DNA of 64,000 bases from an uncultured Chloroflexia bacterium (GCA_963797095.1 CAWCNY010000001.1:527924-591923), one strand, 5' to 3'. Shown: positions 10,379 to 31,279, numbered from the stretch's first letter. Notes: a model not told the origin generated them from the sequence alone. Made by a program: numbers and translations.

Positions 10379-12221
10379 TCTAGAACAAACAGCTTTTGCT
10401 GCCTCTGAAGTGCCGCTTGATTGGTGGGCTGCCGTACATCTGGCGCTCGGTACGCGCGCACTTGAATGGGGCGGTGAGTACGAGGTCGACAGTACAACAC
10501 CTCTGAGCCTAACACTGCGTTGGCCCGCCGTTACATCTCATTTAGGATCGCTGCTCGGGCTGCAACTTCATCTGCCTCCTGATCCTGAGGCCGAGGCGGG
10601 CTGGCGCGCCCAGGGAGCTGCCGGGATCGCCATACAAATGGATCCTGCTCGAGAGGATCACCGCACGGTCACTTCTCAGTGGCAGGCGCAATTTGCCAAC
10701 CGGCGCTACACAGGTGAAACAGTGGTGTCGCTCACACTTTCCGGACAAGCCGTAGCGGGGGCAGATTGCGTGATCATTTACCGCCTCGACACTTCTGACC
10801 AGGCTCGGTATGAGTATATGCGTCAGTGGCTTGAGAAACAGCAGGAGGGCAGGGCAGTAACAGATCAGGTGATCGCTATCCTGGCCCAAGCATCTTTGCC
10901 GACAACGTACAGCCGTCTTGAGGCCAAGTGGGACGCGCTGCGGAAGGCCCATGAGCATCTGTCTGCTGCATTGCCACCGATCCTTGCCAGCCCTAACGTG
11001 GTGCTCAAGCGTGCCGACCGAGTCGTCGAATGGACTGAGTGGATTGGGCGTCATGACCTTTCACGGGCGTTACCCGAACCTGGCACCACCTGGATGCGAA
11101 TGCCCTCTACGTCGGGGTTAGGTGGCGGCGAGGCCGAGGTAAAGGTGCTGCCACGCCGCCTCGTGCTGCGAAACACGGTACGCAGTTTTGATGTCTCGGC
11201 TAATCGATACGTAAGGGACACCGTCGACATGCTTGTGGACGAAGCGCGCGCAGTTGAGCGCGAGGCCGCAAAGCGTATGACCCAACTGCAGCAGGAATCC
11301 GCGATCGCGATGCACCCACGTTGGAAGGCACGCTTCCTCAATGCCCTTGTACATTACGAAAGTCTGGCTGCGAAGGCCCGTAGCCTGCGCAAGCGCGCAA
11401 ATCACCAATGGATCGTATCCAGTTTTCTGGGTGACATAGCACCCGCCCAACCGAAGGCGAGTGACCTCGTGTGGCGGGACAACACCTATTACAGGCACGT
11501 ACGGACAATTCGGGCAACTCTGGAGCGCGAATTGCAGGCCGCAGAAAATGCGCTATTTATGGATCGAGTAGTGACTGGTACTGCTAGTATCAACGAAATC
11601 TTCGAGGTGTGGCTAGCTGCTATCGTGTTGCGAACGCTTACAGAGGAACTAGGGTGCCAGTTGCTAAGGAAAGGTGGCAGACCAATAGACAGAAAGAGCG
11701 ACCGCCCGCCAAGTTACTTGCTCAACCGTGGTTCATCGGCGGAGCTGTTCAGTCCGATCGGGCGGCGACTGGTCGTGCGCTTCGATACCGAATATCCGGC
11801 AATTCGGTCAGAAACCGATCTATTGTGGCGTGAAAGACTGTTGAGTTATGGGGTCGATCGGCGTAGCTGGCCCGGAGCAAAAGGGAGACCCGACATTGCA
11901 ATCGAGGTATGGGATGATGAGCAGCGTGTGCAAGTACCTCGAATAATCGTACTGGACGCGACCTGGAGCAGCCGCCTTGAAACGCATATTGAGAAGTTTC
12001 TGTACCGCGAAACCATTAGAGACTTCACCACAGTCGAGGCCAGTGGTAAGCCTGCCCGCCCTGTAATCGCATCATGGGTTGTCTACCCTGGGGATCCGAA
12101 TGAAGTCGACCATGAAGACGATTACCGGACCGGGCGTTTGCCAATCGAGCCTGGACCGGGTTGTGAAGCCATTCTGCTTACATATTTGCAGCAATTCCTG
12201 AAGATTGCGGGTGGGTATTGA
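10365..12221 (+). CDS. McrC-like protein (DUF2357 + PD-(D/E)xK-like C-terminal domain)
   Basis: Overlaps the McrB stop; GTG 10365 after GGAGG; SFDVSANRYV, NEIFEVW and RPDIAIE..IVLDATW motifs. Confidence 0.75.
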   Translation: MDSSNLEQTAFAASEVPLDWWAAVHLALGTRALEWGGEYEVDSTTPLSLTLRWPAVTSHLGSLLGLQLHLPPDPEAEAGWRAQGAAGIAIQMDPAREDHRTVTSQWQAQFANRRYTGETVVSLTLSGQAVAGADCVIIYRLDTSDQARYEYMRQWLEKQQEGRAVTDQVIAILAQASLPTTYSRLEAKWDALRKAHEHLSAALPPILASPNVVLKRADRVVEWTEWIGRHDLSRALPEPGTTWMRMPSTSGLGGGEAEVKVLPRRLVLRNTVRSFDVSANRYVRDTVDMLVDEARAVEREAAKRMTQLQQESAIAMHPRWKARFLNALVHYESLAAKARSLRKRANHQWIVSSFLGDIAPAQPKASDLVWRDNTYYRHVRTIRATLERELQAAENALFMDRVVTGTASINEIFEVWLAAIVLRTLTEELGCQLLRKGGRPIDRKSDRPPSYLLNRGSSAELFSPIGRRLVVRFDTEYPAIRSETDLLWRERLLSYGVDRRSWPGAKGRPDIAIEVWDDEQRVQVPRIIVLDATWSSRLETHIEKFLYRETIRDFTTVEASGKPARPVIASWVVYPGDPNEVDHEDDYRTGRLPIEPGPGCEAILLTYLQQFLKIAGGY

Positions 12222-12376
12222 AATTTAGCAGACGACCTAGCCGTCTTCGCCTATCGTTCGCCCGACGATCCGCGGTTCGCAGGCATAGATCCTTTATTGA
12301 AGGGTACAACGCAACCGGAGTGCAAGCATAGAACCGCCGAAGTTTGCCTCAGAGCGCCGTCAACATAGGATAAGTA

Positions 12377-13318
12377 TCAACTTCGGCTTACCACCTCCGA
12401 ATGCCGAGATGGGATACGCTTATAGCGGGTAGGAAGAAAATGGAACATCCAACGCATGAGTGTTTGCCAGGCGTAAGTTGCGTTGAACTCCGGCTGATTC
12501 CTACATGGAAGCGTCCGCAGAAAGTTGCAGACAGCCCCAAACCGCTGCAACTCAATGAGGAACTCGTCTACCGCTCTGACAATCGGCTTCTGTAGTAGTA
12601 ACACGCCTATGCAGGCCTCGAATGCAGCCCGTGGCAGCCCTGACTGTACGGGAAGCTCGACAAGTTCCACTTCCGCCACCGCCTGCGATGCCGCAGTCAA
12701 CTCGTGGAGGCGCCCTGAATACGCGACATACAAGTCGGCAGGATCACGAAGCTTTGGTAGCCAACTCTCCTGAGACACTGGTTGAAACTGCTCATTAGGG
12801 GATTCGCCTGTGACAGCAGTTTCGCCTGAAGGAGCAGGCGGAGTAGGGATGTATTGCCGTACTAACTCGACAGCAGCAACCGTGTGGTTGTAGAGGTCAT
12901 CATCAACCTTTATGCAGCCTATGAACAACTCGGTTTCAAATGACTGGAGCTCTCCTGCAGACAAGGGCACTAGCAGTTCGAGGTTTGGCTGACTTGACCA
13001 ACCTAATGCAGTTGCCGTGAGGTTTGCTGATCCTACTAGGCAACTATCATCGGCCCTGTAGTATTTCGCATGTAAATCGGACCGAAGCCACAATGATGCA
13101 CCGGACCGAGCCCTAAGTAATGGCCAAACCTCCAAGTCGCTAACCCCAATGGCGATCTCATCCGTTCGCCACCGCGTCACGCACTTTATCGGGAGATCAT
13201 TCTCCACCAGTGCCAGTAAACGCGCTAATGTTCCTGCCTTAACGAATGGGGCGACCAGCAGTATGTTTCGTCGCCCCGCTCGGCACAGTTGCTCTAGTTG
13301 TATACCTAGCGCTGTCAA
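12377..13318 (-). CDS. Single-HKD phospholipase-D-family nuclease
   Basis: VAPFVK, LHAKYYRADD (HxKx4D), VGSANLT, NLEL. Probable TTG start 13318 overlaps the MORC stop. Confidence 0.85.
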   Translation of the reverse strand: MTALGIQLEQLCRAGRRNILLVAPFVKAGTLARLLALVENDLPIKCVTRWRTDEIAIGVSDLEVWPLLRARSGASLWLRSDLHAKYYRADDSCLVGSANLTATALGWSSQPNLELLVPLSAGELQSFETELFIGCIKVDDDLYNHTVAAVELVRQYIPTPPAPSGETAVTGESPNEQFQPVSQESWLPKLRDPADLYVAYSGRLHELTAASQAVAEVELVELPVQSGLPRAAFEACIGVLLLQKPIVRAVDEFLIELQRFGAVCNFLRTLPCRNQPEFNATYAWQTLMRWMFHFLPTRYKRIPSRHSEVVSRS

Positions 13319-15105
13319 TCCTCTCGTTCCAGAAACATCCTTGCCATCTTCCCCCAATCGGAACGAGCATCCTGTGCACGTCTCCTAGGCTGACCATCAG
13401 GTTGCTCATCTTCATACCGCGCCCATGCCGACAGCAACAGTTTAAGTCCATCAGAGGCTAGGTTCAGGCGCTCCTGCAGTTTGTCGGCGTCTATGGTGTC
13501 TTCCTCCCTCTCAAGTACCTCTACCAAGTGTTGGTAAGCAGGATGATTTGTGTTTAATATGATAACGATAGCACCGCCTCTCGGCTTAACAGTGAAAAAG
13601 GCCGGCATCTCTAGATCTGCCTGTGCGAATAGGTACTTCAGCCCATCACCCACCGTTGTTGCCGCCATCTGCTTGGCAGCCTCCTCCGGCACACCTTCAT
13701 CAAGTAGTGTGCGCTCAATATCGGCTTCACGCTGCTGAGGTGACAGATTCTCGTCCTTATCACTTTCGCCTTTATAGCCCTCATGTTGGCGCTCACGAGT
13801 AGCATTTGTCGCTATAGCCTCAGGAGATGTGGGTGCATGGCGCTGCTCTTTAGTTCGCACTCCCTTCGTCTGCTGCCTCAACCATGTACGCATCTGTGAG
13901 AGGTTCGTGCGTATACGTTGTGCAATCTCCAAAAGGGGAGCGCGGGGGTCCTCATCTTCACGCATCTCTGCTATGGCTGCTGCACTTGTCTCTAACTGAC
14001 TCAACTCGCTCAATTCGGCGAAGTTCCGCGCCGCTTGCTTGTTGTTCGTAACACCAAATAGCTCGTCCAATGCAGGGGGAAACTCCACCTCGATGCCCCA
14101 CCAACGCTCTACTGGATCGTAGTGGATTATCCATGATTGATCGAGGTCTAGCTCTCGTGCTGCTCGCACAATCGAGACACCAGTGTTCTTGGCTGCGTGC
14201 TTCCCGTGTGGTTGCGACCCGGGATTCTGACCTTCCCGTGCTTCCTTCTTGGCAAGAGAGAAGCGCGTCTTGACAATGTGTTCCTGCCCACGGAAGCTTA
14301 CTGTATGCGAGATCTCATAATATTCATCACTCGGCCATGGATTGAACATGGCTATATCGTGGAAAGGTGGAGGACAGGATGTGTGCTTCATTAAGTACCC
14401 TGGGTCATTTGGCAGCGCGTCCGCCTCACTTTGTTGGAAACTGGGATTGTCCGCGTCAAACGCAAGCATACGAATTCTGACCTGCTTATTATCTAGGAAG
14501 CGTCTATACATTCGGCCTATCAGGAATTCGGAGTTCTCGATAATTGCGCGAGCCGTACGCCACATGATACGGTCTAGATCCGACCAGACTACCAATGTAC
14601 CACTCTTCTCAAAGGTAGCACCAACCTGGCGCCACAGATTAGGAATCTCTACGTGCCTGGGATCGGGAATAGCTGTCTGCTTCTTGGTGCGGATTTCATT
14701 GACATCCAGGTATGTATATAGGGACGAGTCCGGACCGTCCTGCCAAGACCATACTTCTACTCGTGTGCATTGTGAGATTGATGCGCTAGGCAGGCCCATT
14801 CCGAACTTGCCCATGCCCTGCTGTTCGGCCGGGACGAGGTGCATACCATTGCCAAACTGTAGAGCAACCTTCAGTACATGAGCATCCATTCCACAACCAT
14901 TGTCAAGTACGGCAATCTGATGAATGCGGGAGCGCTGGCGAAGCTCAATAATTGAAGTACGCTCGGCACAGAGCAATTCGACAACCGTTGCTCTGGCCTG
15001 AATTGAATTATCCATCAACTCAGCAATAGCATAGGCCGCGTTCTTATAGCCGTTGTCACGCATTGCCTGCACTGCAAGATGAGCAGGCACAATCTCTTCG
15101 CTCAT
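13315..15105 (-). CDS. MORC-like GHKL ATPase
   Basis: AIAELMDNSIQA, DNGCGM, GKFGMGL, GTLV; ATG 15105 overlaps the helicase TGA. Confidence 0.88.
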   Translation of the reverse strand: MSEEIVPAHLAVQAMRDNGYKNAAYAIAELMDNSIQARATVVELLCAERTSIIELRQRSRIHQIAVLDNGCGMDAHVLKVALQFGNGMHLVPAEQQGMGKFGMGLPSASISQCTRVEVWSWQDGPDSSLYTYLDVNEIRTKKQTAIPDPRHVEIPNLWRQVGATFEKSGTLVVWSDLDRIMWRTARAIIENSEFLIGRMYRRFLDNKQVRIRMLAFDADNPSFQQSEADALPNDPGYLMKHTSCPPPFHDIAMFNPWPSDEYYEISHTVSFRGQEHIVKTRFSLAKKEAREGQNPGSQPHGKHAAKNTGVSIVRAARELDLDQSWIIHYDPVERWWGIEVEFPPALDELFGVTNNKQAARNFAELSELSQLETSAAAIAEMREDEDPRAPLLEIAQRIRTNLSQMRTWLRQQTKGVRTKEQRHAPTSPEAIATNATRERQHEGYKGESDKDENLSPQQREADIERTLLDEGVPEEAAKQMAATTVGDGLKYLFAQADLEMPAFFTVKPRGGAIVIILNTNHPAYQHLVEVLEREEDTIDADKLQERLNLASDGLKLLLSAWARYEDEQPDGQPRRRAQDARSDWGKMARMFLERED

Positions 15106-16715
15106 TCTTCCCTCCAAACATCTTCCCAGTTGCCAAAGGCTTCAGCCATGCTGCCGAATCCTGGCAACTCAGTATCGACAACGGTTACGACTTCCGCGTC
15201 GACGTTTCCACCTACCTTCGGCCCCCTGGTCGCTCGACCCACCATTTGACTATAAAGCACTAACGACTTCGTGGGTCGTGCTATGAGGGCCGCGCTTGTT
15301 TTAGGTGCATTAAAACCTGTGGTCAGCACGCCATAGTTGCAGATAATTCTAGGGTCATCGCCTTCCCCTTTGTAGCGCGCGAGCAGGCGACTTCTCTCAA
15401 GGGATGACGTGGTTCCTGTCACAGCGGCTGCATCGTGCCCACGCGCGCTAAGTACAGCTGCCAGTAAATGTGAGTGCTCCACTGACGCCGCAAAGATCAG
15501 CACCCGTTTATGCCTCCTGATAAGTTTCTCCACCTCCACTATGATCGCGAGATTGCGCTGATCGTCCTCAGCAAGCCGCTTTAGTATTCTTTCTGGGATA
15601 TCTAGCTCCTGCCCTATCTCCTTCATGTCTGCGGAGCTCAAGCCTAAGCCGCTACCACTTGGCAGTGTTCGGTAATTGACACGGGCTAAGTAGCCCTCGG
15701 CCACGAGGTACGCAATAGGATTGGTGTAACCCTCAATCCTGAGTCCGACTTTGTGCCGACCAAAGTAGTCGGACAACTCTGCGTCAGCACTAGGATCATT
15801 CCAGGTCCGGCCCGGTGTGGCGGTAAGCCCTAATAGGCCTGCCGCCCGACCTTGTGTCACCAGCATATCAAGCACTAATCGGTAAGCTGGAGCAATTGCC
15901 TGATGAGCCTCGTCGATAATGACTAGCGTACATCGGCCTGCTAGCGTTCCCAATAGGGACGATCCTTGGCGACCTGCAATGAACAGCTTCGCAAGCCCAG
16001 CAATGACGATGCCATCCGATGCTCGTTCAAGCTCCAATGAATGGGGACCCCAGAATCGGTTTACATTGACTTCACGATCCCCCAAGACGGCCCAGGTTGA
16101 TTCGAATTCCGATGCAGCCTGCTCGCACAACTCTTCGCTGTAGGCTAACCAAACCGCCAACGCCGGCTCTTGGGTGCGGAGATGATCTGCAATTACCTGC
16201 ATGGCCATTCTGGTCTTGCCAGCACCTGTGGGCATGTGCAAGAGCACCCGATGCGGTTCCTGGCTCAGTGCGGTTCGTACCTCACGCACTGCGGTACGCT
16301 GGTGTTCAAATAGTGAAAGCTCGCCTATGACGGAACCACTTGAGGGTACATAAGCGACTTCATTTGGTGCAGGAACGACCAACTCGAAGAACTCAAATAA
16401 CAGACGTTCGCGCTCTGAGCCTCTTCGAATCTCGATGGAGCGTAGAGCAGCGAAAACATCCCCACTGTTCTTCAAACCCAGGGCATTTGCTAGCCTGTTT
16501 GCCTCAGGGGTGCGCAAGAGGTCTAGCAGAAGCTCGCGGCTTGTACGACTAATGAGGAGATCCTCACGTGAGCGCAATTGGAGCATGATCTCACTAAGAT
16601 TGCCAGGATTCACAGAACGTGAGTCGAGTAACCCGAGCAGTCGAATAGTAGGCCCGCCAAGTAAATCCTGGAGGGTCGCGTCATCGGCTCGGGATAGTAG
16701 ATCATCGAACTTCAT
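15102..16715 (-). CDS. SF2 DEAH helicase (type III restriction Res-like)
   Basis: MPTGAGKT, IIDEAH, GLTATP, VLTTGFN, QMVGRATR. Confidence 0.92.
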   Translation of the reverse strand: MKFDDLLSRADDATLQDLLGGPTIRLLGLLDSRSVNPGNLSEIMLQLRSREDLLISRTSRELLLDLLRTPEANRLANALGLKNSGDVFAALRSIEIRRGSERERLLFEFFELVVPAPNEVAYVPSSGSVIGELSLFEHQRTAVREVRTALSQEPHRVLLHMPTGAGKTRMAMQVIADHLRTQEPALAVWLAYSEELCEQAASEFESTWAVLGDREVNVNRFWGPHSLELERASDGIVIAGLAKLFIAGRQGSSLLGTLAGRCTLVIIDEAHQAIAPAYRLVLDMLVTQGRAAGLLGLTATPGRTWNDPSADAELSDYFGRHKVGLRIEGYTNPIAYLVAEGYLARVNYRTLPSGSGLGLSSADMKEIGQELDIPERILKRLAEDDQRNLAIIVEVEKLIRRHKRVLIFAASVEHSHLLAAVLSARGHDAAAVTGTTSSLERSRLLARYKGEGDDPRIICNYGVLTTGFNAPKTSAALIARPTKSLVLYSQMVGRATRGPKVGGNVDAEVVTVVDTELPGFGSMAEAFGNWEDVWREE

Positions 16716-16786
16716 CAGCTATTTAAGAACACCCACAGCTTTTACTTGGAGTACACAGCGTGCCCACTTTGGATTCACATGAGGAG

Positions 16787-17968
16787 CTACCGTACCGAGG
16801 ACTGAACAGTATGAAGGCGCTCTGCTGCCCGAATGATAGCGTCAGTAGCGTGGGCGACTTCGTCATCGGTAGTGAATCTTCCCACGCCAATGCGCACGGT
16901 GCTGTATGCGTCTTCTCTGCTCAGCCCTATCGCCAACAGCACGTATGAGGGTTCTGGGGCTCCGCTAGTACAGGCAGAGCCCGTGCTTAGCGCTACCTGA
17001 GGCGTATTAGCTATCAGCGCTTCGGCGTCCAGTCCTGGGAATGTAAGGCTGCTGTTGCCAGGTAGGCGTGCGTGAACAGCTCCGTTGCGCCGGGCAGCAG
17101 TGAGAGCGTTCATCAAAACACCTTCGAGCCTATCTCGCAGCTCGCTGACACGAGCTGCTTCGGTTGGGAGCGAATCCATATATAGCGCGCACGCGGCGCC
17201 CAGCCCGACAATGCCTGGCACATTCAGAGTTCCAGGGCGTAGATCCCGCTCCTGGCCTCCTCCAAAAACCAGGGGCTGCATAGGGAGTGAGTATGCACCG
17301 CCCCTGATGTAGAGCGCACCAACTCCTTTCGGTCCATATATCTTGTGGGCGCTCAAGGACAAGAGGTCTACATCGCACGCATCGACATTGACCGGGATCT
17401 TACCTACCGCCTGCGCGGCGTCACTATGCACAAGAGCCCCTTTGTCGTGGGCTAGAGCAGCGATCTCGGCCAGGGGTTGAATTGTCCCTATTTCGTTGTT
17501 TGCTGCCTGTACTGAAACCAATAGCGTATCATCTGTAATCGCACTCTTCACAGCGATCATTTCAACGCGCCCGTCCGCGCCAACCGGTAGCAGGACTAGC
17601 TCGAACCCTTCTTTCTCGAGTTGGTGGCAGGGTTCGAGCACGGCCTTATGTTCGATAGAAGTCGTAACGATCCGCCGCCGGACATGACCGCCTCTCAACT
17701 CTGCAATACCCGCCATACCCCGGGCCAGCCCTAATATTGCCAGGTTGTTGCTCTCAGTGGCCCCTGACGTGAAGACAATCTCACCAGGTTGAGCCCCTAG
17801 CAAATCAGCCACATGCGCTCGCGCCGCTTCAACCGCAGACAATGCCTCGCGCCCAGCTGCATGGAGTGTACTTGAGGCGTTTCCAAAGGTATGTCCAAAG
17901 AAGGGTAACATTTGTTCCACAACCCTCGGATCACATGGAGTCGTGGCATGGTAGTCTAAATAAATCAT
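16787..17968 (-). CDS. sspA: Cysteine desulfurase (SspA/DndA/IscS type)
   Basis: IYLDYHATTP, SGATESNN, SAHKIYGPKG (PLP Lys), STGSACTSG (catalytic Cys); ATG at 17968; directly downstream of sspD. Confidence 0.9.
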   Translation of the reverse strand: MIYLDYHATTPCDPRVVEQMLPFFGHTFGNASSTLHAAGREALSAVEAARAHVADLLGAQPGEIVFTSGATESNNLAILGLARGMAGIAELRGGHVRRRIVTTSIEHKAVLEPCHQLEKEGFELVLLPVGADGRVEMIAVKSAITDDTLLVSVQAANNEIGTIQPLAEIAALAHDKGALVHSDAAQAVGKIPVNVDACDVDLLSLSAHKIYGPKGVGALYIRGGAYSLPMQPLVFGGGQERDLRPGTLNVPGIVGLGAACALYMDSLPTEAARVSELRDRLEGVLMNALTAARRNGAVHARLPGNSSLTFPGLDAEALIANTPQVALSTGSACTSGAPEPSYVLLAIGLSREDAYSTVRIGVGRFTTDDEVAHATDAIIRAAERLHTVQSSVR

Positions 17969-17984
17969 TAAGTGCCTCGCACTA

Positions 17985-18797
17985 TTATAGCTGACAGACC
18001 AGACAGCCGCCATCGTCGTCTAAGCTGTCTGGCTCGCCTGTGAACATCTCGGCCAGCGTCTTCGGCCTTCTGCGGGCGGCCGCCTGCGTCTTTCGCTTCT
18101 GTTCCTCGCGCTGGATCTGCTCGACACGTTCTGGTCGAGCGAGTTCTTGCAGGCTCTCGTGCTGAGCCCAAGTATATCCTTGCTCAGGCTTCTCATAGCC
18201 CTTCGCGCTCTCGTACAGTTCAGGGTGCTTCTCAAGTAAACCCACCCACTCCTTCTTCCGCTGAAAGAAGCAGAAATAGCACCCCGAACGGGTGCGCCAC
18301 TCGTAATACTCAGGCATGCCTATCCCACTATCATCTAGAATTCGGAACACGTCGTCTTTTGTTATGCCATCTTCCTTGAAGGGGAATACCGGGGTTATTG
18401 TGGGTTTGGTGCTGATATATCCTTCGCGGTTCTCATCACTTCGAATGGCGACATAAAGATTCACCGGGTCGTCGCCAACATACTGCTCAAACGGTTCTAT
18501 CTTGAGCTTACGCGTACACCAGCGGACGCTCGGAGAGGGCAGAAATCCTCCATACATATCGAGCCAGTGGTCAAAACCACGATCTCCTAGGCCGCTAGCT
18601 AGCCGTGTGATAGGCTTTTCCAGATAAGCTTCAACTCGAGTCAGATATTCGTAGGTCTCGGGCAGTTCCTTCTGGGTATCACAGAAGAGATACTCCATAT
18701 CTATTTCTGGGTGATGGTCCCGCATATAGATAGCGAGCCCTGTGCTGTCTTTGCCACCGGACAACAGCAATATGTTACGTCGCAGCTTCTCACTCAT
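17985..18797 (-). CDS. sspD: PAPS-reductase-family protein SspD
   Basis: SGGKDS PP-loop, RWCTRKLKI, RSGCYFCFFQ, C-terminal CLVC; ATG 18797 overlaps the end of sspC. Confidence 0.88.
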   Translation of the reverse strand: MSEKLRRNILLLSGGKDSTGLAIYMRDHHPEIDMEYLFCDTQKELPETYEYLTRVEAYLEKPITRLASGLGDRGFDHWLDMYGGFLPSPSVRWCTRKLKIEPFEQYVGDDPVNLYVAIRSDENREGYISTKPTITPVFPFKEDGITKDDVFRILDDSGIGMPEYYEWRTRSGCYFCFFQRKKEWVGLLEKHPELYESAKGYEKPEQGYTWAQHESLQELARPERVEQIQREEQKRKTQAAARRRPKTLAEMFTGEPDSLDDDGGCLVCQL

Positions 18798-21700
18798 TAT
18801 CGTGCCCTCCCTGGCCACCGATGTCTCGGCCACCGATGTCTCCCATGTCTCCCAGATAGCGCATTGCAGCCTGGGCGAGGGCGGCTATACGCACCCTGCG
18901 TGCCTCCTCACTACCGTCCGTGCCTTGGCTCAACAGCGTGCTTATACGTTCCGTAAGGGCGTCTACAGAAGCAACTCGCTCAGGCGTCAAAGCAACGATA
19001 GCACGCGCTTCCTTAATGTGGCCGTTTAGTAACCCAATGCGCAGGACCTGGGTCGCGCCCGTGAGCTGTTGCTCTGTCACCAACTCTTCCAACCGGACAA
19101 AGTCGCTGGCTATCTGGCGCAGCCGTAAACCGAAGCCCACAGCGTCCGGGTCTCGCCATTGATTGGGAGGCGTGCCCTGGTTAACCACACGTCCTAGCAC
19201 TTCTCGCCACTCGCGACCTTCCAGGCGGCTGGACTCGCGTATGAACAACGTCAGGGTCTGCTCGGCGGACGTTCCTTCGATGGCTGCAGCCCTTCGTTGG
19301 AGCTGGCTACGCACGCTGTCAGACGATCCTTGCAGGTCGAACACAATCCGCACTTGCTCCTCTATCTGGTCCAGAAGCTTGTGATAGGCGTGCTGTAGAG
19401 CCAACAAGCAGTCTTTGAGCAGGCTGGCGAAAGAACCGCCCGGGTCCCACCGCAGCGAGGGGAGCCCCAGTGCTCGTGGCAGGTCCACAAACAGTAAGGC
19501 GTACGGATCGGCGGACCGCAACAGAATATCGCGGACCGCCACAGCCTGTGGCGGCTCTAGCTTCTTCGTGTTCTTAGCATATTGAGGCAGGTGCGCCGCG
19601 AACAGCACGAGGGGTTTTACCACCCCTAGCAGTTGCGAAGCACTATCGTCTTCTTTGAGCGGCCCTTGCACCGTTTCGAGTATGTCAGTAATATCGGCGA
19701 ACGCCTGCCGGTCTTCATCCGACACCACAAACTGCTGAATTTCAAAGGCTTCCGGTACACGGAGTAACCGCTCGATAACTTCGACCCTTAGTTCCGGCAC
19801 GAACACCCCGCCGTCGTAGAGCGCCACATCGTCCTTATGCGCCAGCAGTAGGGCGCACGTCAGGAGAGGAACGACCCCCTCGCGGAGGCCGAACGGAGCG
19901 CGTCTCAATCGGGAAGCTATCTCAAGGATTGGTCGGCGGTTGCTGTGTGTCTCTTGCAAGAATTCGTTTAGCGTGTGCCACACGGGTAGCCAGGTGCTGT
20001 TCGGTTCCCCTAGCTGCAGGCGCCCGCCCCGGAAGCCGTGGAAGCCGCCATCTTGTAGGAGCGACCGATACATGCTCACTTCGGGAGGGTTGCCTGTGAA
20101 GCCGAGGGTTGGCTCCCCTTCTCGACTCAGCATAGCTTCGAGCAGGTTGCGTCGAGCTTTGGCAGCTGAAGATGACAGATGATCGCGGTTGAGCAGCTCG
20201 TTACGCAGTACTGGGGCCTGGTTGTATACCTGATCGCAAAGCTTCGAGATCCACTGCGAGAAGCTCCTCGCGGAATGTAATTCGTGCAGTGTGCCCCCTT
20301 GCACCCATTCGCAGGCCGATACATCTAGCGAGTAGCCGCGGAGACCAAGTACGGAGCCAGCTAGGCTCTCCAGCCGCTCTATCGCCTGTCTCAGGCGCGC
20401 CTTCACTTCTTGCCTTGCCACAGGATCGCCCTGCAGCCCCGGGACATTTGAGGTCACCCACTCCCAGCTTTCGACTTCCCGCAGAGCCTCTTCCAAACCA
20501 GTCATCGGCCTAGGGAACGCCAAGATACGGAGGCGATGCTCAGGCTGTTGGCTGAACGTCAGCTCTTGCGCGTATTTAATGAGAGCCTCGCGCTCGGCGT
20601 CGGCCGGGGTAAGGACATAAAGTATCTGGCCGTCGGCTGGGGTAAGAGGCTGGTTGAACGTTTGGCGAAGGGTCAATGGATCGCCATCAATTAGATCGAC
20701 CGAGAAATAGCGGAGTGTGCCACGCTTGATGTAGTGAGAGCGCGCCACCAACGGGCGCACAGCAATTGACGCCTTAAGGCGCTCGGCCAGCCTACCATGC
20801 CCAACCATCTGTAGGGCTTCCTGGATAGCGGTGTCGAGGTCGACGTCCGAACCTTCCCACAGCGCGTAGGCGTCTTCGTGGCGCCTGTAGACCAATATCG
20901 AGGCGCGTTGTAGGTGAGCTATGGCTTCGTTCACGCCCTCGCGATTGCCCAATGCTAGCGCGATAAGCTCTTGCGAAGCCTTCAGGCCAACGGCCGCCCC
21001 GTAAAGGTTGAGTAAGCCAACAGTCTTAATAACGGCAGTCGCAAGGCGTGGGGCACCGACGGTAACTCGCTCCAGGGCGTTCTCTATCTCCGACCAGCGC
21101 CTGGCTCGATCTCCGCGATAGATAGCAGCGCCTAACGCAGTAGTAACGTAGTCATACAGATCGTCGCTGCGGTAGAAGGGTGGTAAACCCTCGCTCCAGG
21201 TGATACCTGCTAGAAACTGCTGGAAGCCGAACGGCTCTCGCCCCGTGAGAAAAGCGAATAAAGACCGCTCATTCTGGGCTAGCTTACTCCGGAACAGGGG
21301 CCACAGGAGCAGGGCAGTCACCGGGTGCAAAGGCGCACAATTCGCCAGCAATTCGCCTAAGGCCGGGAAGCGCTGTCCCACCTCACCAAAAGGTGGTGCT
21401 TGTACAACCTGCTCCGTCGCGTAGATATAGCTTGTCTCCAAGTCAGTAGGCATCTCACGGCCTATCGCAGCCCCTACCAGGCGTAGGAGCTGCTCTGGTG
21501 GCTCTTGGAAAGCGACATCAGTGAAGCGACCTTGAACTTTCTGCCACTCCCTGCGGCGTAAGTCGTCGAGCGTATCAAGATAGTCAGCAAATGACGCATG
21601 AAGTATTGTGACCAGCAGGATGGGGATGGTACTTCTGGCCGCTGCCTCTGCCAAGTGCTGCATGACTAGCAGGTCTTCGCTTTCCGGATGCTGGGACGCA

Positions 21701-22272
21701 TGCTCGAGGAGCTTGCCAAACTCGTCAATAACCAGTAGCAGCCCACCATAACCCCGTGCTCTAGATGCCCGCGCCGCTGATTCGACCAGAGTTAAAACGT
21801 GGTCTCCTTGCCCTCCAGCACTGTCGGCGGTGGCTGGGTAGAGGGTATCAAAATCCTCGGTAAGTCCAAGGGTCACTGGCTCGACCGCCTCACGCAGTGC
21901 GGACATAATCGTGGGTACGAGCGGGGCGCGCTGCCCTACACACAGCATGGGCAAAAAGGGAGGTAGGTCAAACCCTACGCTTTGGCGTAGAGGGTAGCTT
22001 TGAGGGTGTTCCGGGGTAGCTTGGGCCAGCAGATCCGTCAAAAAGAGAGCGAAGGCGGATTTCCCAGTCCCATACGGCCCAGTAATGGACCAAGCCCGAC
22101 TGCCTCCAGGTATCTGCAGACCAGCTAGCATCTGAGTCGCCAGATCACGGGCGGTCGGTGTCAGAAGATACTCGTGGACACTTCGCGGGTTTTTCCAGTC
22201 CTTGGCTATTTGCACAGAACGATAGAATCTCCCTCTGACAGTTACTGCTTCGTGGAATGCTACTGCAGTCAT
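18790..22272 (-). CDS. sspC: SspC large P-loop ATPase
   Basis: RFYRSVQI, GPYGTGKS, LLVIDEFGK, EWQKVQGRF, QNERSLFAFL; 1160 aa, between a DUF4007-type gene and a PAPS reductase. Confidence 0.85.
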   Translation of the reverse strand: MTAVAFHEAVTVRGRFYRSVQIAKDWKNPRSVHEYLLTPTARDLATQMLAGLQIPGGSRAWSITGPYGTGKSAFALFLTDLLAQATPEHPQSYPLRQSVGFDLPPFLPMLCVGQRAPLVPTIMSALREAVEPVTLGLTEDFDTLYPATADSAGGQGDHVLTLVESAARASRARGYGGLLLVIDEFGKLLEHASQHPESEDLLVMQHLAEAAARSTIPILLVTILHASFADYLDTLDDLRRREWQKVQGRFTDVAFQEPPEQLLRLVGAAIGREMPTDLETSYIYATEQVVQAPPFGEVGQRFPALGELLANCAPLHPVTALLLWPLFRSKLAQNERSLFAFLTGREPFGFQQFLAGITWSEGLPPFYRSDDLYDYVTTALGAAIYRGDRARRWSEIENALERVTVGAPRLATAVIKTVGLLNLYGAAVGLKASQELIALALGNREGVNEAIAHLQRASILVYRRHEDAYALWEGSDVDLDTAIQEALQMVGHGRLAERLKASIAVRPLVARSHYIKRGTLRYFSVDLIDGDPLTLRQTFNQPLTPADGQILYVLTPADAEREALIKYAQELTFSQQPEHRLRILAFPRPMTGLEEALREVESWEWVTSNVPGLQGDPVARQEVKARLRQAIERLESLAGSVLGLRGYSLDVSACEWVQGGTLHELHSARSFSQWISKLCDQVYNQAPVLRNELLNRDHLSSSAAKARRNLLEAMLSREGEPTLGFTGNPPEVSMYRSLLQDGGFHGFRGGRLQLGEPNSTWLPVWHTLNEFLQETHSNRRPILEIASRLRRAPFGLREGVVPLLTCALLLAHKDDVALYDGGVFVPELRVEVIERLLRVPEAFEIQQFVVSDEDRQAFADITDILETVQGPLKEDDSASQLLGVVKPLVLFAAHLPQYAKNTKKLEPPQAVAVRDILLRSADPYALLFVDLPRALGLPSLRWDPGGSFASLLKDCLLALQHAYHKLLDQIEEQVRIVFDLQGSSDSVRSQLQRRAAAIEGTSAEQTLTLFIRESSRLEGREWREVLGRVVNQGTPPNQWRDPDAVGFGLRLRQIASDFVRLEELVTEQQLTGATQVLRIGLLNGHIKEARAIVALTPERVASVDALTERISTLLSQGTDGSEEARRVRIAALAQAAMRYLGDMGDIGGRDIGGQGGHDNE

Positions 22273-23303
22273 ACCGTTCGCACCTGTGCATGTTCGCTAT
22301 CTAAAGCCTGCTTGAAGTACCTTGCTAATGTCGAGAAAGCAGATAGGTCTTGGCGTGAGTAGTCGTTGCCATCGTAGCTTGGGCGCATGACCAATCGGCG
22401 TCCGGCCGTTTCGTCATAGCTCAATGGGCACCACCTGGGCAGCTCTTCTAAATATGCCGCCAGAGCATTCTCGGATAACTTGAAAGCCGCACCCGGGCTT
22501 CCGCCGCCGTATTGGATCGACTCGAAAGAGAGTGTGCGCTGTGAGGGTGCAATTCGCTCCCAAAACTCTAACAAAGCATACACAAAAATAGCCTGAGGCA
22601 ATGCGGGTTTTGGGCCGCGCACGAACTCGTAAACGCCACGCTCGACTTCCCGGATCAGCCCCAGTTCGACCAGTGGACAGTCGAATGTATCTTCCAAGGG
22701 CAGATCACGGGTCGCATGTGCGGGGGTGTAGGTGCGGATGAACACTTCGACATCCCTACGGACGGAAGCCGTAGTCGCTCGCACTAGCGGCGTCTGCTGG
22801 ACCCGCTTCATTAGCCATTCAGTCAGGCTGTCACGGGTGAATGTAGGCTCATGGAACTGGGTATAGGTCAGATACCAGGTTGAGGCCCTATCCCGGCGAC
22901 TTACTAGAAGCCAATGAAGTAACCATAGCGTGCCTGGATCCTCTAAATATGGGTCCCAGCCCCCATCGCTGAAGAGCGCCTGGCCCAAGGGAGTAGTTTG
23001 GACTACCTTCCCCCGGTCGGCGGACTGTATCAGCCTTAGCGTCTCGCACCAGAAGCGTATAGAAGTGACCATGTTCTTACCGACGCCCAGGATGACCATA
23101 GCGTCGTCACGGGTAAAGAGGTTAGGGTAGCTCTGCAATCCTTGTACGCCTTTTGGCAGCCAGGCATAGCGTAGTGGAAACGTCTCGTGCCCACTGAAGC
23201 TGTAGCGGCCCGTGTCGACCGATGACATGGCCACGCCGGACAGAGGGTTGTCGCTTTGTGTACCGAGAAAGTTAGTCATTAGCGTCGGGGTATCGGGTAG
23301 CAA
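22269..23303 (-). CDS. sspB: DUF4007 protein SspB
   Basis: FSGHETFPLRYAWLPKG, LGVGKNMVTSIRFW, DPYLEDPGTLWLLHW; TTG start after AAGGAGG. Confidence 0.9.
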   Translation of the reverse strand: MLPDTPTLMTNFLGTQSDNPLSGVAMSSVDTGRYSFSGHETFPLRYAWLPKGVQGLQSYPNLFTRDDAMVILGVGKNMVTSIRFWCETLRLIQSADRGKVVQTTPLGQALFSDGGWDPYLEDPGTLWLLHWLLVSRRDRASTWYLTYTQFHEPTFTRDSLTEWLMKRVQQTPLVRATTASVRRDVEVFIRTYTPAHATRDLPLEDTFDCPLVELGLIREVERGVYEFVRGPKPALPQAIFVYALLEFWERIAPSQRTLSFESIQYGGGSPGAAFKLSENALAAYLEELPRWCPLSYDETAGRRLVMRPSYDGNDYSRQDLSAFSTLARYFKQALDSEHAQVRTV

Positions 23304-23511
23304 AGGGTTCCCTCCTTGTAGAGCATCTAAACTCCTGCCTATAGTGTATCACAGTCGACGGGATGTGGATAAAATCGCTACCAGGCACAATATGTAGTAG
23401 TTATTCTGTGCCGTTGCGCTTTTTCTAGATGTTCTAGGAATCGGATAGCTCATTGGAAGTGTCAGAAGTAAGGGTAGCACCTGGTTGACGGCTGTTCATT
23501 GGTGTAGAATG

Positions 23512-24429
23512 TCACCGACCGAGATGAATGAGCGCCATAACAGTAGGCGTATTTCGCATCCTCACCAGCGTGGTCTCTACATGAAATCGGCCCTTGATTT
23601 GTTGGAAGTCAAGCACTTCATTGCACGCATCGATCTCACCGAAGATGCTCCCTCGTAGACCCTTCTGCAACGCCCGGTATATCGAGGTACTCGGAGGAAT
23701 TGTCTCACTCGGGGCGAAGCACTTCCCAGCACTAGGTGAGTTCCACTGCCGCCACACGCGCAAATCAGCAGATGATCTCCATGGGGGCACATGATAGACC
23801 GAGGAGCCTTGATTAGACAGCATGGGCTGCGACCAGCGTAGCGTGCCCTCCTGAGCCAGGACGAAGATGCAAGGCGACACATCAGCTTCCACCATTCGCC
23901 GCACGATTGGGGTCACCGACAACCTACAATCCCTTGCCCACTGGAACCCATAGGAAAGCCTAACTCTTCTGCTGCGCACGACAGGGAAGAAGAGAGCCCC
24001 GGGTAACATGATCTCTGCAGCGCCCCAGTCGCACCAGAATTCTTTGTGCCTCCAAAGCTGCTCCATCTCCCCCCGAGTGTAGCGACCCGGCACCTCAGCA
24101 CGAAGTGCGGCAAATAACCCTTCTACGAACTCGTGTGCTTTGCTGTAATTCTGTACTCCCGCGGGATCATCGCCGTTGATGACCATACGATTGCCCATCA
24201 AGAAACCACGCTGTTTACTGTCGCCGTCGGACAGCAACTCAACGCGGAGCCTGAAGCCGTGGTGCTCGATGAGACGGTCAATGTCCACGGGCAAGCGCCA
24301 AGTACCTGCGGAGCGGAGCATATACTCGGCATACTCCTGGACGAGGATGCGTGTGTCACGAGTCTCAGTCTGTCTGAGGAAAGCCTGCGGCGCATTAGGT
24401 AGGTTGAGGGCATTCGCTAAGTTCATCAT
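23512..24429 (-). CDS. ImmA/IrrE (CapP-like) metallopeptidase-family protein, HExxE variant
   Basis: LPVDID, NYSKAHEFVE, EFWCDWGAAEIMLP, followed by a C-terminal beta-rich region; directly downstream of an XRE repressor. Confidence 0.7.
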   Translation of the reverse strand: MMNLANALNLPNAPQAFLRQTETRDTRILVQEYAEYMLRSAGTWRLPVDIDRLIEHHGFRLRVELLSDGDSKQRGFLMGNRMVINGDDPAGVQNYSKAHEFVEGLFAALRAEVPGRYTRGEMEQLWRHKEFWCDWGAAEIMLPGALFFPVVRSRRVRLSYGFQWARDCRLSVTPIVRRMVEADVSPCIFVLAQEGTLRWSQPMLSNQGSSVYHVPPWRSSADLRVWRQWNSPSAGKCFAPSETIPPSTSIYRALQKGLRGSIFGEIDACNEVLDFQQIKGRFHVETTLVRMRNTPTVMALIHLGR

Positions 24430-24461
24430 TACCTACGCTTCCTCGTTCCTCCTTCTGAGGG

Positions 24462-24863
24462 CTATCGAGCCTCTTCTTCCTCTTCTAGCATTGCTTTAAT
24501 CACCGAGTATATCGCCCGCCACTCACGCGGAGTAGTAGGCTTCCGCCCACGGTACTCTATCTGGGCCAGCATAGTGAGCTCACGAGTGCTCAACCCTGAC
24601 TGCTCCGCAAATTCCTGAAGGCTAGCTGGTATTTCTACTGCGTCGAACCGCTCGCCCAGTAACTCACTGGGCCTGGCATCGAGCGCATCTGCAAGCTTCT
24701 TGATCTTATCCTCGGTTGGAGCGCTTTCACTACGCTCGATTTGGTACAGGTAACTGCGTGAGATCTTTGACTTCTCAGCAAGGTCGCTGAGGCTCCAGCC
24801 TCTCTTCTCACGTAATTGGCGGACCCGATCTCCAATCTTCTCATTAGGCACTTGTTCAGGCAT
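24462..24863 (-). CDS. XRE-family HTH transcriptional repressor
   Basis: IGDRVRQLREKRGWSLSDLAEKSKISRSYLYQIE..IKKLADAL. Confidence 0.92.
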   Translation of the reverse strand: MPEQVPNEKIGDRVRQLREKRGWSLSDLAEKSKISRSYLYQIERSESAPTEDKIKKLADALDARPSELLGERFDAVEIPASLQEFAEQSGLSTRELTMLAQIEYRGRKPTTPREWRAIYSVIKAMLEEEEEAR

Positions 24864-24898
24864 ATGCAGGTCTTCCCTCTGTCCTTTACTCTGTTGCC

Positions 24899-24927
24899 AT
24901 TATAAAGGCCGACGGAAGCGGCGTCAA
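24899..24927 (-). promoter_or_regulatory. Sigma70-type promoter for the HTH/peptidase transcript
   Basis: Minus strand TTGACG-17 nt-TATAAT. Confidence 0.8.
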
Positions 24928-24967
24928 TATAGCGGTACGATATTCTCCGGTATTGTGGAAAAACCTC

Positions 24968-24997
24968 TTGACGCCGCTGTCGTTATAGCAGTATGCT
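24968..24997 (+). promoter_or_regulatory. Divergent sigma70-type promoter for the small-protein operon
   Basis: TTGACG-18 nt-TATGCT. Confidence 0.65.
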
Positions 24998-24999
24998 TA

Positions 25000-25017
25000 T
25001 GTACGTAATATCGTACA
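25000..25017. promoter_or_regulatory. Operator-like palindrome TGTACG-TAATAT-CGTACA
   Basis: Overlaps the predicted +1 of the plus-strand promoter; GTACGATATT at 24935-24944 is the reverse complement of 25007-25016. Confidence 0.6.
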
Positions 25018-25053
25018 GAGCGGTGCGGTAAATCTAATGAAAGGAGGGCCAAG

Positions 25054-25287
25054 ATGATGAGCAAGAACAGACATGTGGTGCCCCATGGCAATGACTGGGC
25101 GGTTCGCAAAGAAGGCGCATCTCGCGTTTCTTCCACGCACCCGACCCAGCAGGCAGCTATCGATAGCACCAAGCAGGGTGCAATACGTGACCACGCTGAA
25201 GTGGTAATCCACCGTCCGGATGGGCGCATTCGGGACAAGGACTCCTATGGCAATGACCCCTGCCCGCCGAGGGATAACCAGCACTAG
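25054..25287 (+). CDS. DUF2188-family small protein
   Basis: HVVPHGNDWAVRKEG..TQQAAI..IHRPDGRIRDKDSYGNDP; RBS AAGGAGG. Confidence 0.85.
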   Translation: MMSKNRHVVPHGNDWAVRKEGASRVSSTHPTQQAAIDSTKQGAIRDHAEVVIHRPDGRIRDKDSYGNDPCPPRDNQH

Positions 25288-25333
25288 GGCTGCGGCAGAC
25301 ATCGGCATTCCATACTGGACAATTAGCGTTACG

Positions 25334-25361
25334 CCTCAACTGACCCTAGGGTCGGTTGAGG
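25334..25361 (+). other. Intergenic near-perfect palindrome/hairpin
   Basis: CCTCAACTGACCC-TA-GGGTCGGTTGAGG (13-bp arms, one G.U pair); no U-tract; just upstream of the next RBS. Confidence 0.6.
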
Positions 25362-25378
25362 GAAAGGAGAATTAGGAG

Positions 25379-25555
25379 ATGTACAAGACTGGACAGGAAG
25401 CTCCAGAATCGGGGCAATACTATTGGGCGGGCTATACTGATGGCACGAGCACGCCTGCCCCCACGGTAGAGGAGCGCGTAATCTGGCTACAGAGAGGTGA
25501 AGTCTTTCCTCCGATCCGCTCGTGCAACAAGGGTGCCTATTGGCGCCTGAAATAA
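25379..25555 (+). CDS. YjzC-like small protein, 58 aa (not in ORF track)
   Basis: AGGAG RBS; MYKTGQEAPESGQYYWAGYTDGTSTPAPTVEERVIWLQRGEVFPPIRSCNKGAYWRLK matches the KTGxxAPxSGxY..GExFPP..W pattern of YjzC-like proteins. Confidence 0.8.
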   Translation: MYKTGQEAPESGQYYWAGYTDGTSTPAPTVEERVIWLQRGEVFPPIRSCNKGAYWRLK

Positions 25556-25572
25556 GAGGTTTTGGAGGTGGG

Positions 25573-25686
25573 ATGAGAGCCACCGAAGAGTGTCCGTATG
25601 TAAAAGGCCCATCCGACCGGCCTCTCAAGCCGCCGAGGCCGACCATGTTTAATATCGGTCCCGGCGCCCTGCGAGACGTCGCTTGA
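25573..25686 (+). CDS. Putative 37-aa small protein (not in ORF track)
   Basis: Strong GGAGGTGG RBS directly after the YjzC-like stop; MRATEECPYVKGPSDRPLKPPRPTMFNIGPGALRDVA. Confidence 0.4.
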   Translation: MRATEECPYVKGPSDRPLKPPRPTMFNIGPGALRDVA

Positions 25687-27453: not shown

Positions 27454-27500
27454 GTAGCTGTCCGGCAACGTGCCGGACCTGCAGTGAAAGCGCTACCCAC

Positions 27501-31274: not shown

Positions 31275-31279
31275 GTAAT

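Follow-up and report, generated by a model that had tools for sequence, protein, structure and literature searches.

The seven-gene locus

A 64,000-nucleotide stretch of DNA from an uncultured Chloroflexia bacterium (GCA_963797095.1, CAWCNY010000001.1:527924-591923), referred to below as the window, carries at positions 12377-23303 a run of seven open reading frames (ORFs), all on the minus strand (Table 1). Four contiguous genes were identified by PADLOC and Pfam as sspB, sspC, sspD and sspA, and are predicted from these matches to encode together an SspABCD module for DNA phosphorothioation (PT). They are followed by genes for a superfamily 2 (SF2) DEAH helicase or translocase, a MORC-like GHKL ATPase and a predicted phospholipase D (PLD)-family nuclease with a single HKD motif. 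These last three genes, hereafter the trio, probably constitute an effector variant of PT-based defence that is distinct from the effectors SspE and SspFGH.

The genes are tightly packed. The sspB/sspC junction is an ATGA overlap. With ATG 18797 as the likely start of sspD, overlapping the sspC stop, the sspC/sspD junction is a ATGAGTGA overlap, and the likely sspA start (ATG 17968) lies 16 nt past the sspD stop. A gap of 71 nt separates sspA from the helicase gene, after which the helicase/GHKL junction is an ATGA overlap and the GHKL/PLD junction a TTGA overlap, the likely starts being ATG 15105 for the GHKL gene and TTG 13318 for the PLD gene. Base composition of the region (GC 0.53-0.58) was the same as that of its flanks. 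A promoter and terminator scan of 12000-25800 returned site numbers not above those of shuffled sequences, and no terminator-like site 3' of the PLD gene.

An original prediction, made from the sequence alone, had given the same overlaps and the same 16-nt and 71-nt gaps, and these proved exact when re-read. It had also named the four ssp genes, described intact catalytic motifs in all three trio proteins and reported that no methyltransferase, PglZ or BrxL was recognisable. The profile searches agree with the gene names, the motifs are visible in the translations, and none of the three missing families was found among the window ORFs scanned (33 by Pfam, 18 by PADLOC).

Table 1. Genes of the seven-gene locus and two adjoining genes, with coordinates in the window and the E-values of profile matches.
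Feature	Coordinates	Strand	Product and matches
sspB	22269-23303	-	DUF4007 protein, 344 aa; Pfam DUF4007 5.7e-85; PADLOC SspB 2.8e-91
sspC	18790-22272	-	BrxC-like P-loop ATPase, 1160 aa; PADLOC SspC E=0, profile positions 1-1063/1065
sspD	17985-18833 (longest ORF)	-	PAPS-reductase-like sulfurtransferase; PADLOC SspD 1.7e-114; Pfam PAPS_reduct 1.3e-06
sspA	16787-18013 (longest ORF)	-	Cysteine desulfurase; PADLOC SspA 2e-147, DndA 3.7e-147; Aminotran_5 2.8e-78
SF2 DEAH helicase/translocase	15102-16715	-	537 aa; Pfam ResIII 3e-22, Helicase_C 3.3e-10
MORC-like GHKL ATPase	13315-15117	-	Pfam HATPase_c_3 2.3e-20; GHKL and S5-like transducer, residues 1-420, then family-specific C-terminal region
Single-HKD PLD-family nuclease (predicted)	12377-13357	-	PLD domain ~13-165; C-terminal tandem helix-turn-helix (HTH)/winged-helix ~192-326
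capH-like HTH	24462-24863	-	PADLOC capH 1.5e-14; HTH_3 1.6e-17; directly upstream of sspB region
capP-like protein	23512-24429	-	PADLOC capP 4.2e-13

Motifs and folds of the trio proteins

The helicase translation contains a Walker A motif (GAGKT) and a DEAH box. Both, together with motifs III and VI, were kept in 54/54 full-length homologues, window gene included. The four motifs and two RecA-like domains, recognised through ResIII and Helicase_C, place the protein among SF2 helicases. Its nearest solved relatives by sequence were RadD (7.9e-22) and SauUSI (8.3e-08). An N-terminal domain of about 130 aa had no family assignment, and a search of the ESM Atlas with residues 1-130 returned only unnamed clusters or scores <0.8.

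The GHKL protein carries the N (E..DNS), G1 (DNGCGM) and G2 (GKFGMG) boxes of the Bergerat fold, which were found in 76, 80 and 79 of 82 family members, respectively. A structural model was built from an 18-row alignment, with a predicted local distance difference test (pLDDT) score of only 77. Comparison of model residues 1-420 by VIA-align gave SMCHD1 (Z 19.1, 333 residues aligned), MORC3 (Z 18.4, 299 aligned), MutL (Z 16.7) and MORC2 (Z 16.4), and Foldseek matched MORC2 at E 3.9e-11. On this model the GHKL domain is followed by a predicted S5-fold transducer domain. We call the protein MORC-like only, the label being based on the boxes and the GHKL/S5 fold and not on a MORC-specific sequence motif. 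Its last 180 residues hold the most conserved motifs of the family and have no assigned fold; residues 350-600 retrieved only unnamed clusters or scores <0.8 from the ESM Atlas. The family is coherent, at ~600 aa and with 588 representatives at 50% clustering (E ≤ 1e-30), and the best 120 matches of a nearer search all carry generic names.

In the PLD protein the motif reads H96-x-K98 ... G-S110-x-N112, and H96, K98, S110, N112, N125 and E127 were invariant across 39 sequences. No solved structure was matched by sequence at E ≤ 0.1. A model from a 39-row alignment (pLDDT 91.6) placed the PLD domain closest to that of SauUSI (Z 16.1, root-mean-square deviation 2.2, 140 aligned), followed by Nuc (Z 13.9), NucT (13.8), BfiI (13.6) and NgoAVII (12.2). 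The motif HxK(x)4D(x)6GSxN and the modelled fold thus identify a predicted PLD/HKD nuclease, with Pfam alone sub-threshold. The helical C-terminal domain (~192-326) resembled an ArsR-type winged HTH (Z 7.9), N.BspD6I (6.8), BrxA (6.5) and the FokI recognition domain (6.2); since these scores are middling, the domain is assigned only as HTH-type. A common ancestry of this HTH with SspB, which would have implied shared target recognition, found no support (hhalign probability 0.2%). Prediction of a GHKL and PLD complex, run without controls, scored 0.00, a value that speaks neither for binding nor against it.

Relation to known effectors and defence systems

None of the trio proteins matched the PADLOC models of SspE, SspF, SspG or SspH at E ≤ 0.01. 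The SspE models recognised real SspE beside sspD in other genomes (E=0 in L029 and 1.1e-128 in L098; L numbers are our own labels for loci and genomes). In sister genomes of the phylum (L086, L088, L108) SspF was recognised at 3e-235, SspG at 1.3e-47 to 5.1e-187 and SspH at E=0, the SspFGH controls ranging overall from 1e-45 down to 0. The trio proteins were also without a GmrSD_N (DUF262) or GmrSD_C match from Pfam or PADLOC. The genome that contains the window (6.0 Mb in 8 contigs, 93% complete) holds one GHKL copy and gave no match to the SspE model PDLC02789. It likewise gave no match to one SspF model, which was also silent in 14 control genomes. The distinctness from SspE and SspFGH assumed in the original prediction is therefore upheld, the models being silent on the trio yet strong on genuine effectors.

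SspFGH, as described in the available portion of Wang et al. 2021 (PMC8092258), is also a three-gene cassette directly after sspBCD, proposed to damage DNA without PT, and tolerates a second effector in its locus. In contrast to the trio, which consists of an SF2 helicase, a GHKL ATPase and a PLD protein without homology to SspFGH, SspF is a Walker-A protein and the C-terminus of SspH is FtsK-like (PMC8092258). The gene for SspE also follows sspBCD, and some loci have it in one array with the trio, but SspE is a single protein of DUF262 and DUF1524 type (Pfam GmrSD_N and GmrSD_C on one checked homologue) and the trio has neither domain.

Among other systems, PbeA ('dnd_restrict_1', TIGR04095) resembles the trio in that PT-writing genes are directly followed by an HKD nuclease and an SF2 motor (PMC10853773, available portion). 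It differs in that HKD and helicase are fused in PbeA, whereas the trio encodes them in two genes on either side of that for the GHKL ATPase; moreover, its writer is Dnd, while that of the window is Ssp, without PbeB, PbeC or PbeD. The TIGR04095 match reached 42.8 bits against a cut-off of 600, PbeA matches spanned the helicase core only and the PLD protein had none. All family matches of the helicase lay far under the cut-offs (RadD 8.5e-30, PbeA 1.8e-21, TIGR04095 3.3e-11, type I/IV restriction enzymes), as did the weak PADLOC/NCBIfam match of the PLD protein to DrmC (1.4e-9) relative to its family cut-off.

The MORC/paraMORC restriction-modification operons described by Iyer, Abhiman and Aravind (2008; PMC2292703, available portion) combine a GHKL and S5 ATPase with an SF2 helicase and a nuclease, occasionally HKD, on mobile islands. 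Their further partners are DNA methylases and Vsr (PMC2292703), while the partner of the trio is SspABCD phosphorothioation. SauUSI (PDB 7clg), the best fold match of the PLD domain and a relative of the helicase, also couples a PLD nuclease to an SF2 motor; unlike the trio it is a single-polypeptide, ATP-dependent type IV enzyme that attacks DNA with modified cytosine, without a GHKL partner or linked modification genes. The MzaB GHKL ATPase of MZA was the sole PADLOC/NCBIfam defence-family match of the GHKL protein (2.1e-19; 9.4e-22), but this covered the N-terminal ATP-binding domain only, at 77 bits against a cut-off of 850, and no other Mza component was matched. The locus therefore does not qualify as MZA, nor as BREX type 4, in the latter case because the scanned ORFs of the window include no PglZ or BrxL. 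The reading of the trio as a type IV enzyme directed against PT-modified DNA was considered and rejected because the trio sits beside a PT writer, so that host DNA would be attacked.

Linkage to ssp genes across phyla and plasmids

One genome per species was scanned, and relatives of the GHKL ATPase were found in 433 species. The following counts refer to the best 80 of these 433 loci (52-66% identity), compared through a tblastn search with the window's seven proteins and by clustering 1,133 ORFs. The canonical order was sspB-sspC-sspD-helicase-GHKL-PLD(-sspA). Genes sspB, sspC or sspD, or a BrxP-like substitute, were present in 61/80 loci, rising to 53/60 where at least 8 kb upstream was available and 40/47 with at least 9 kb on both sides. 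The helicase gene adjoins the GHKL gene in 67/80 loci, helicase-GHKL-PLD are contiguous in 34, and all six genes are strictly contiguous in 13. In 31 loci the trio module is nested, with sspBCD on one side and sspA on the other. The 80 loci fall into nine named phyla: Cyanobacteriota (50), Bacteroidota (8), Chloroflexota (7), Pseudomonadota (4), Armatimonadota (3), Acidobacteriota (2), Myxococcota (2), Ignavibacteriota (1) and Actinomycetota (1), with two unassigned. The seven genes were the only window ORFs to recur in related loci, save one kinase ORF matched in one locus. Since the flanking ORFs do not recur, the conserved unit is the seven genes.

Linkage extended to plasmids. A GHKL relative (26-60% identity) was found on 14 PLSDB plasmids, and 13 of these were inspected. 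In 12/13, sspB, C or D lay within ~12 kb, down to 26% GHKL identity. The hosts with ssp linkage include Pannonibacter, Mesorhizobium, Roseobacter, Aminobacter, Pleomorphomonas, Hymenobacter and Planktothrix, as well as Treponema saccharophilum (30% GHKL identity) and a member of the Rhodobacteraceae (26%). A Geminocystis plasmid has sspD, with no sspB or sspC. Plasmid A of Trichormus variabilis ATCC 29413 carries the full set, its trio annotated in RefSeq as 'DEAD/DEAH box helicase', 'ATP-binding protein' and 'phospholipase D family protein'.

It had been allowed in the original prediction that the trio might usually occur without ssp genes. This was not seen: the tie is wide and tight, in 53/60 assessable loci over nine phyla and in 12/13 plasmids. 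Fixed order, nesting and translational coupling across phyla point to a functional partnership with Ssp, which mere co-location in defence islands would not explain.

The nuclease varied. PLD was found in 43/80 loci, and in some lineages other proteins take its place. In Nostocales these were a 148-aa HNH protein after the GHKL gene, or an HTH-HNH protein of 460 aa that precedes a shortened helicase; transposase-like insertions were frequent there. A 359-aa hypothetical protein without PLD similarity follows the GHKL gene on an Agrobacterium plasmid (L115, 9028-10107) and an Aminobacter plasmid (L120, 12798-13877). The nuclease thus seems exchangeable, as expected of an effector module.

Two further arrangements were observed. 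Several cyanobacterial loci have a DndB-like (DGQHR) protein of ~750-780 aa between sspD and the helicase (L010, 6069-8339; L117, 6851-9157; L128, 6010-8346), labelled in RefSeq as 'DNA sulfur modification protein DndB'. In a two-gene variant, a GHKL ATPase of ~580-610 aa is followed by a protein of 156-177 aa, with no helicase between the pair and sspD or SspE (L110: GHKL 10722-12464, small ORF 10175-10708; L098: 10145-12468). The pair stands directly after sspD in L041, L043 and L110, after SspE in L098, and one ORF past sspD in L078. The small protein had a weak, sub-cut-off GIY-YIG match in L041 and L110 and none in L098. Such pairs may be another unnamed Ssp partner. Like the DndB-like proteins, a second GHKL gene paired with a small GIY-YIG-like gene also occurs as an addition to the module.

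Ssp partners in the phylum of the window

An even sample of 401 genomes of the window's phylum contained 28 with SspD at E ≤ 1e-20. At least six of the sampled genomes had a GHKL relative, a lower bound given that the GHKL-family gene beside sspD in L110 was missed. The neighbourhoods of the 27 SspD loci other than that of the window were classified by partner (Table 2).

Table 2. Partners next to sspBCD in 27 other SspD loci of the phylum.
Partner	Loci	Recognition
SspFGH	13/27	Three by hidden Markov model (HMM), rest by blastp
Second SspB/BrxC-like pair with PglZ and BrxL	4/27	
PbeA/PbeC-like	2/27	
Full trio	1/27	
SspE, GHKL and small protein	1/27	
GHKL and GIY-YIG-like	1/27	
Nothing recognised	1/27	
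Contig-end cut or too weak to assess	4/27	

The two Pbe-type arrays (L102, 8036-12581; L103, 8002-12564) carry a PbeA-like (2.1e-189) and a PbeC-like gene (8e-54) directly after sspB-C-D, recognised by PADLOC in L102 and by blastp in L103. Earlier descriptions place Pbe with the modification genes of Dnd, while in these two arrays it accompanies Ssp. In L094, L097, L107 and L111, sspBCD is followed by a divergent SspB-like protein, a BrxC-like protein of 1400-1700 aa, PglZ (5.2e-90) and BrxL (8.6e-214), arrays that are hybrids of Ssp and a BREX-type-4-like system.

Whether writer and trio share a history was examined in a FastTree phylogeny of 70 SspC proteins and by correlation of pairwise identities. 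The label 'trio' required 8 changes on the tree, against a shuffled mean of 21.7 (0/500 shuffles as low). The window SspC is very divergent (best identity 37%); it falls in a starred six-row set with trio-linked SspC of Acidobacteriota and Myxococcota and a contig-cut row from the window's phylum, while the SspFGH-linked SspC of that phylum lie elsewhere on the tree. Rows linked to Pbe and SspFGH nest within trio-linked groups, so partners were swapped over time. Spearman correlations were 0.61 for GHKL-SspC (0/500 permutations as high), 0.73 for GHKL-helicase and 0.81 for SspC-SspD. The ssp genes and the trio thus appear to travel together. Rows had been picked via the GHKL gene or from a single phylum, and shared host ancestry inflates both measures; tree and correlations are therefore supportive and not decisive.

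A predicted PT-linked restriction unit

The SF2 motor, the single-HKD nuclease and the MORC/MutL-type ATPase are the parts of an ATP-dependent restriction enzyme. We consider it reasonably probable that the seven genes form a PT-linked restriction unit, in which the SspABCD writer is joined to a dedicated, ATP-dependent helicase/MORC-like/PLD restriction module and PT spares the host. The identities, intact catalytic motifs, folds and conserved ssp linkage of these genes are observed; that the trio proteins act jointly as a complex, cut DNA and take PT as the host-sparing mark is what we infer.

In such a unit, borne as one mobile defence module, SspABCD would write PT marks on host DNA. The PLD protein would bind DNA through its C-terminal HTH. 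Single-HKD PLD nucleases need a second copy to build one active site, as established for Nuc and BfiI; with its single HKD motif the protein would therefore have to pair with a second copy. Relatives of the MORC/MutL type dimerise on ATP and clamp DNA, and the MORC-like ATPase may similarly dimerise on ATP binding and clamp or loop DNA while the SF2 motor translocates along it. DNA without PT would be cut and PT-marked host DNA spared. A bolder version, which we offer tentatively and with some doubt, is that the trio represents a third major class of Ssp partner, in which MORC dimerisation joins two single-HKD monomers into an active nuclease only on PT-free DNA.

Several findings weigh against a PT-linked restriction unit. 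Two divergent helicase-GHKL-PLD trios (L113, 8466-12705; L114, 7827-12739; GHKL 38-40% identical) lie amid housekeeping genes, their neighbours being an H+-pyrophosphatase, SurE and an ABC transporter. Their genomes (98-100% complete) gave no SspC or DndC match and no SspD at E ≤ 1e-20. L114 has a weak SspD-like ORF of 324 aa (1.3e-12) directly before its helicase, which is without the N-terminal domain. In addition, 7/60 assessable loci, all cyanobacterial, have no sspBCD nearby; a whole-genome search of five of these seven (L047, L052 and L065 among the genomes searched) found only a weak PAPS-reductase match elsewhere, with no sspB or sspC beside it, and in the one genome examined (L047; locus L081) this match was DndC in a dndB-HNH-dndC-x-dndD cluster. 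Full-length helicase and GHKL genes without a recognised nuclease, and with no sspBCD nearby, occur in Microcoleus and an Oscillatoriaceae record (L046, L047, L052, L056, L065), with an sspA-like gene upstream of the pair in L052 and L065. The plasmid of Cyanobacterium sp. HL-69 (H4) has the trio and sspA, with no sspBCD in the flank. Within the window's phylum the full trio is a minority partner, in 2/28 SspD-positive genomes (window counted) against 13 with SspFGH, while it is frequent in cyanobacteria. The Pfam PLDc_2 match to the PLD protein (23.0 bits) falls under the 27-bit cut-off. Finally, the trio shares loci with both known effectors. SspE lies between sspD and the helicase in 5/80 loci (an ORF cluster whose identity was verified by PADLOC), and on an Agrobacterium plasmid the helicase-GHKL set runs directly into SspF-G-H, convergent with sspABCD.

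These shared loci bear on the earlier proposal that the trio replaces SspE or SspFGH. The trio is not homologous to either, but 'replaces' is too strong because the trio also stands beside them, and it is better described as an alternative or additional module. The same 5/80 arrays would suit a mode of action like that of SspE, in which PT sites of the host recruit the trio or switch it on against incoming DNA, leaving it inert, and not toxic, without PT. In SspE, the Ssp effector studied most thoroughly, recognition of PT licenses the nuclease through GTP-driven switching (available portions of PMC13251355 and PMC8092258). A module inert by default would make the stand-alone trios and the nuclease-less pairs, which exist without evident self-killing, easier to explain. 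We nevertheless consider PT sensing unlikely: no known PT-reading domain was recognised in the trio, with no DUF262 or SspE match; the PLD C-terminal domain has only a generic HTH or winged-HTH resemblance (Z 6-8); and an SF2 motor with an HKD nuclease is the classical design of ATP-dependent restriction, for example SauUSI.

The stand-alone trios mean that the family can exist without a recognisable PT writer, and because the genomes of L113 and L114 gave no SspC or DndC match, dependence of the trio on PT, which the original prediction took to be the self mark, is put forward here conditionally. Together with the cyanobacterial loci and the one plasmid that carry the module without sspBCD, they would be expected if the trio were an independent MORC-type restriction or abortive-infection module, riding the same islands and indifferent to PT. 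Rakesh et al. 2024 (PMC10853773, available portion) argue that uncoupling of DndFGH from the genes of Dnd modification is common, and in the window itself mobile elements and further defence-like genes are densely packed into an island. Independence is nonetheless quite improbable in our estimate, as chance co-location does not account for the fixed order and strand, the nesting between sspD and sspA in 31 loci, or linkage in 53/60 loci over nine phyla and on plasmids to 26% identity; nor do the window's other flanking genes recur, apart from the single kinase ORF.

The nuclease-less pairs raise a further alternative, namely that the helicase and the MutL/MORC-like ATPase are accessories of modification that help SspBCD scan, nick, load or repair DNA, the nuclease being facultative. 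In mismatch repair, MutL-type ATPases are known to cooperate with helicases where DNA is nicked, a point taken up in PMC2292703. No gene of the cluster is better conserved than GHKL (identity 52-66%, while SspB and SspC have 21-46% in the same loci), sspA lies downstream of the trio in 31 loci, and in Microcoleus L052 and L065 the pair stands beside an sspA-like gene. However, SspABCD alone, or IscS with SspBCD, is enough for PT modification in E. coli (PMC8092258, available portion). In the phylum sample 24/28 SspD-positive genomes gave no GHKL match, the GHKL count being a lower bound, and neither an ORF nor a fragment of the GHKL family was present in 23/27 of the other SspD neighbourhoods. 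In most intact loci, moreover, the pair is accompanied by a nuclease whose catalytic residues are invariant. An accessory role thus seems very unlikely to us, and a restriction module spared by PT remains the reading we prefer.

Surroundings of the locus

The window as a whole is an island rich in Tn3-family, IS66 and IS21 transposases, resolvases and integrases, with several other defence-like genes. Directly upstream of the sspB region lies a capH/capP-like pair (Table 1), preceded by the sole 11-of-12 sigma-70-like match of the region (24927-24899), in a scan where site numbers were not above shuffles. CapH/CapP pairs are DNA-damage-responsive switches of defence operons. The pair, which was not conserved in related loci, is tentatively regarded as a possible regulator of the unit, and its membership is equally tentative.

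In 26083-34462 a NERD-kinase (PglW-like, 6.6e-51) stands in a row with another kinase (PD-T4-6-like, 3e-49), a PP2C phosphatase, one more kinase and finally an MkoA-like superfamily 1 helicase (2.6e-107); judged by these matches, the row resembles a Mokosh-like defence cluster based on kinases. A PDC-M26A-like ATPase is present twice (9.3e-45 and 1.4e-46), at 8489-12221 and 36014-40605, and in both places a large ORF without confident family match comes after it; the second pair has AAA_5 and a weak DUF2357 match and is McrBC-like. At 4209-8266 an SbcC/LmuB-like SMC ATPase (LmuB 3.5e-23) comes after a calcineurin-like phosphoesterase, with a resolvase adjoining. A Tn3-family transposase at 46812-54514 is apparently split, DDE profile positions 1-182 lying in 46812-49289 and 192-389 in 53085-53732; the pieces are separated by two tyrosine-recombinase genes (49111-52541), and one more such gene comes after them. 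The 1059-aa ORF at 55563-58742 had no Pfam or PADLOC match.

Significance

Phosphorothioation systems of the Ssp type are widespread. Of 2,678 sspBCD clusters surveyed, 2,211 had neither sspE nor sspFGH, and further partners were proposed (Wang et al. 2021, PMC8092258, available portion). A role for prokaryotic MORCs in restriction-modification systems, alongside SF2 helicases and nucleases, had been predicted (Iyer et al. 2008, PMC2292703, available portion), in a paper whose text contains neither 'PAPS' nor 'PLD'. In the literature on Ssp and phosphorothioation we found no name for the trio module; supplementary neighbourhood tables (e.g. Table S2 of PMC8092258) were outside this search and may list its genes as unnamed neighbours. 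MORC and GHKL were absent from comparative genomics of Dnd (PMC10853773) and of BREX/Ssp-related systems (PMC12839542), as were helicase and HATPase from a paper on PT in the gut (PMC12914056). A 2026 paper on SspE names, in the available portion of its text, just Dnd and SspFGH as companion PT systems, and there 'MORC' does not occur (PMC13251355). PADLOC v2, NCBIfam and RefSeq have only generic names for the trio, and defence finders would therefore call such loci effector-less Ssp.

The trio is a concrete candidate for the partner of seemingly orphan sspBCD clusters, conserved across phyla and present on plasmids and mobile islands. Across the small phylum sample, no fewer than five further types of module accompany the Ssp core (SspE, SspFGH, PbeA/PbeC-like, PglZ/BrxL, and GHKL with a GIY-YIG-like protein). 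Because the module is found in culturable strains, for example on plasmid A of Trichormus (Anabaena) variabilis ATCC 29413, it is directly testable. If the trio is indeed a third class of Ssp partner, it would explain part of the roughly 84% of sspBCD clusters without a known effector. Prokaryotic MORC-like ATPases would then be tied to DNA-backbone modification, where the earlier link was a prediction and concerned methylation-based restriction only. MORC would also gain an ancestral role in reading marked versus unmarked DNA, echoing the silencing of unmarked or foreign elements by eukaryotic MORC proteins.

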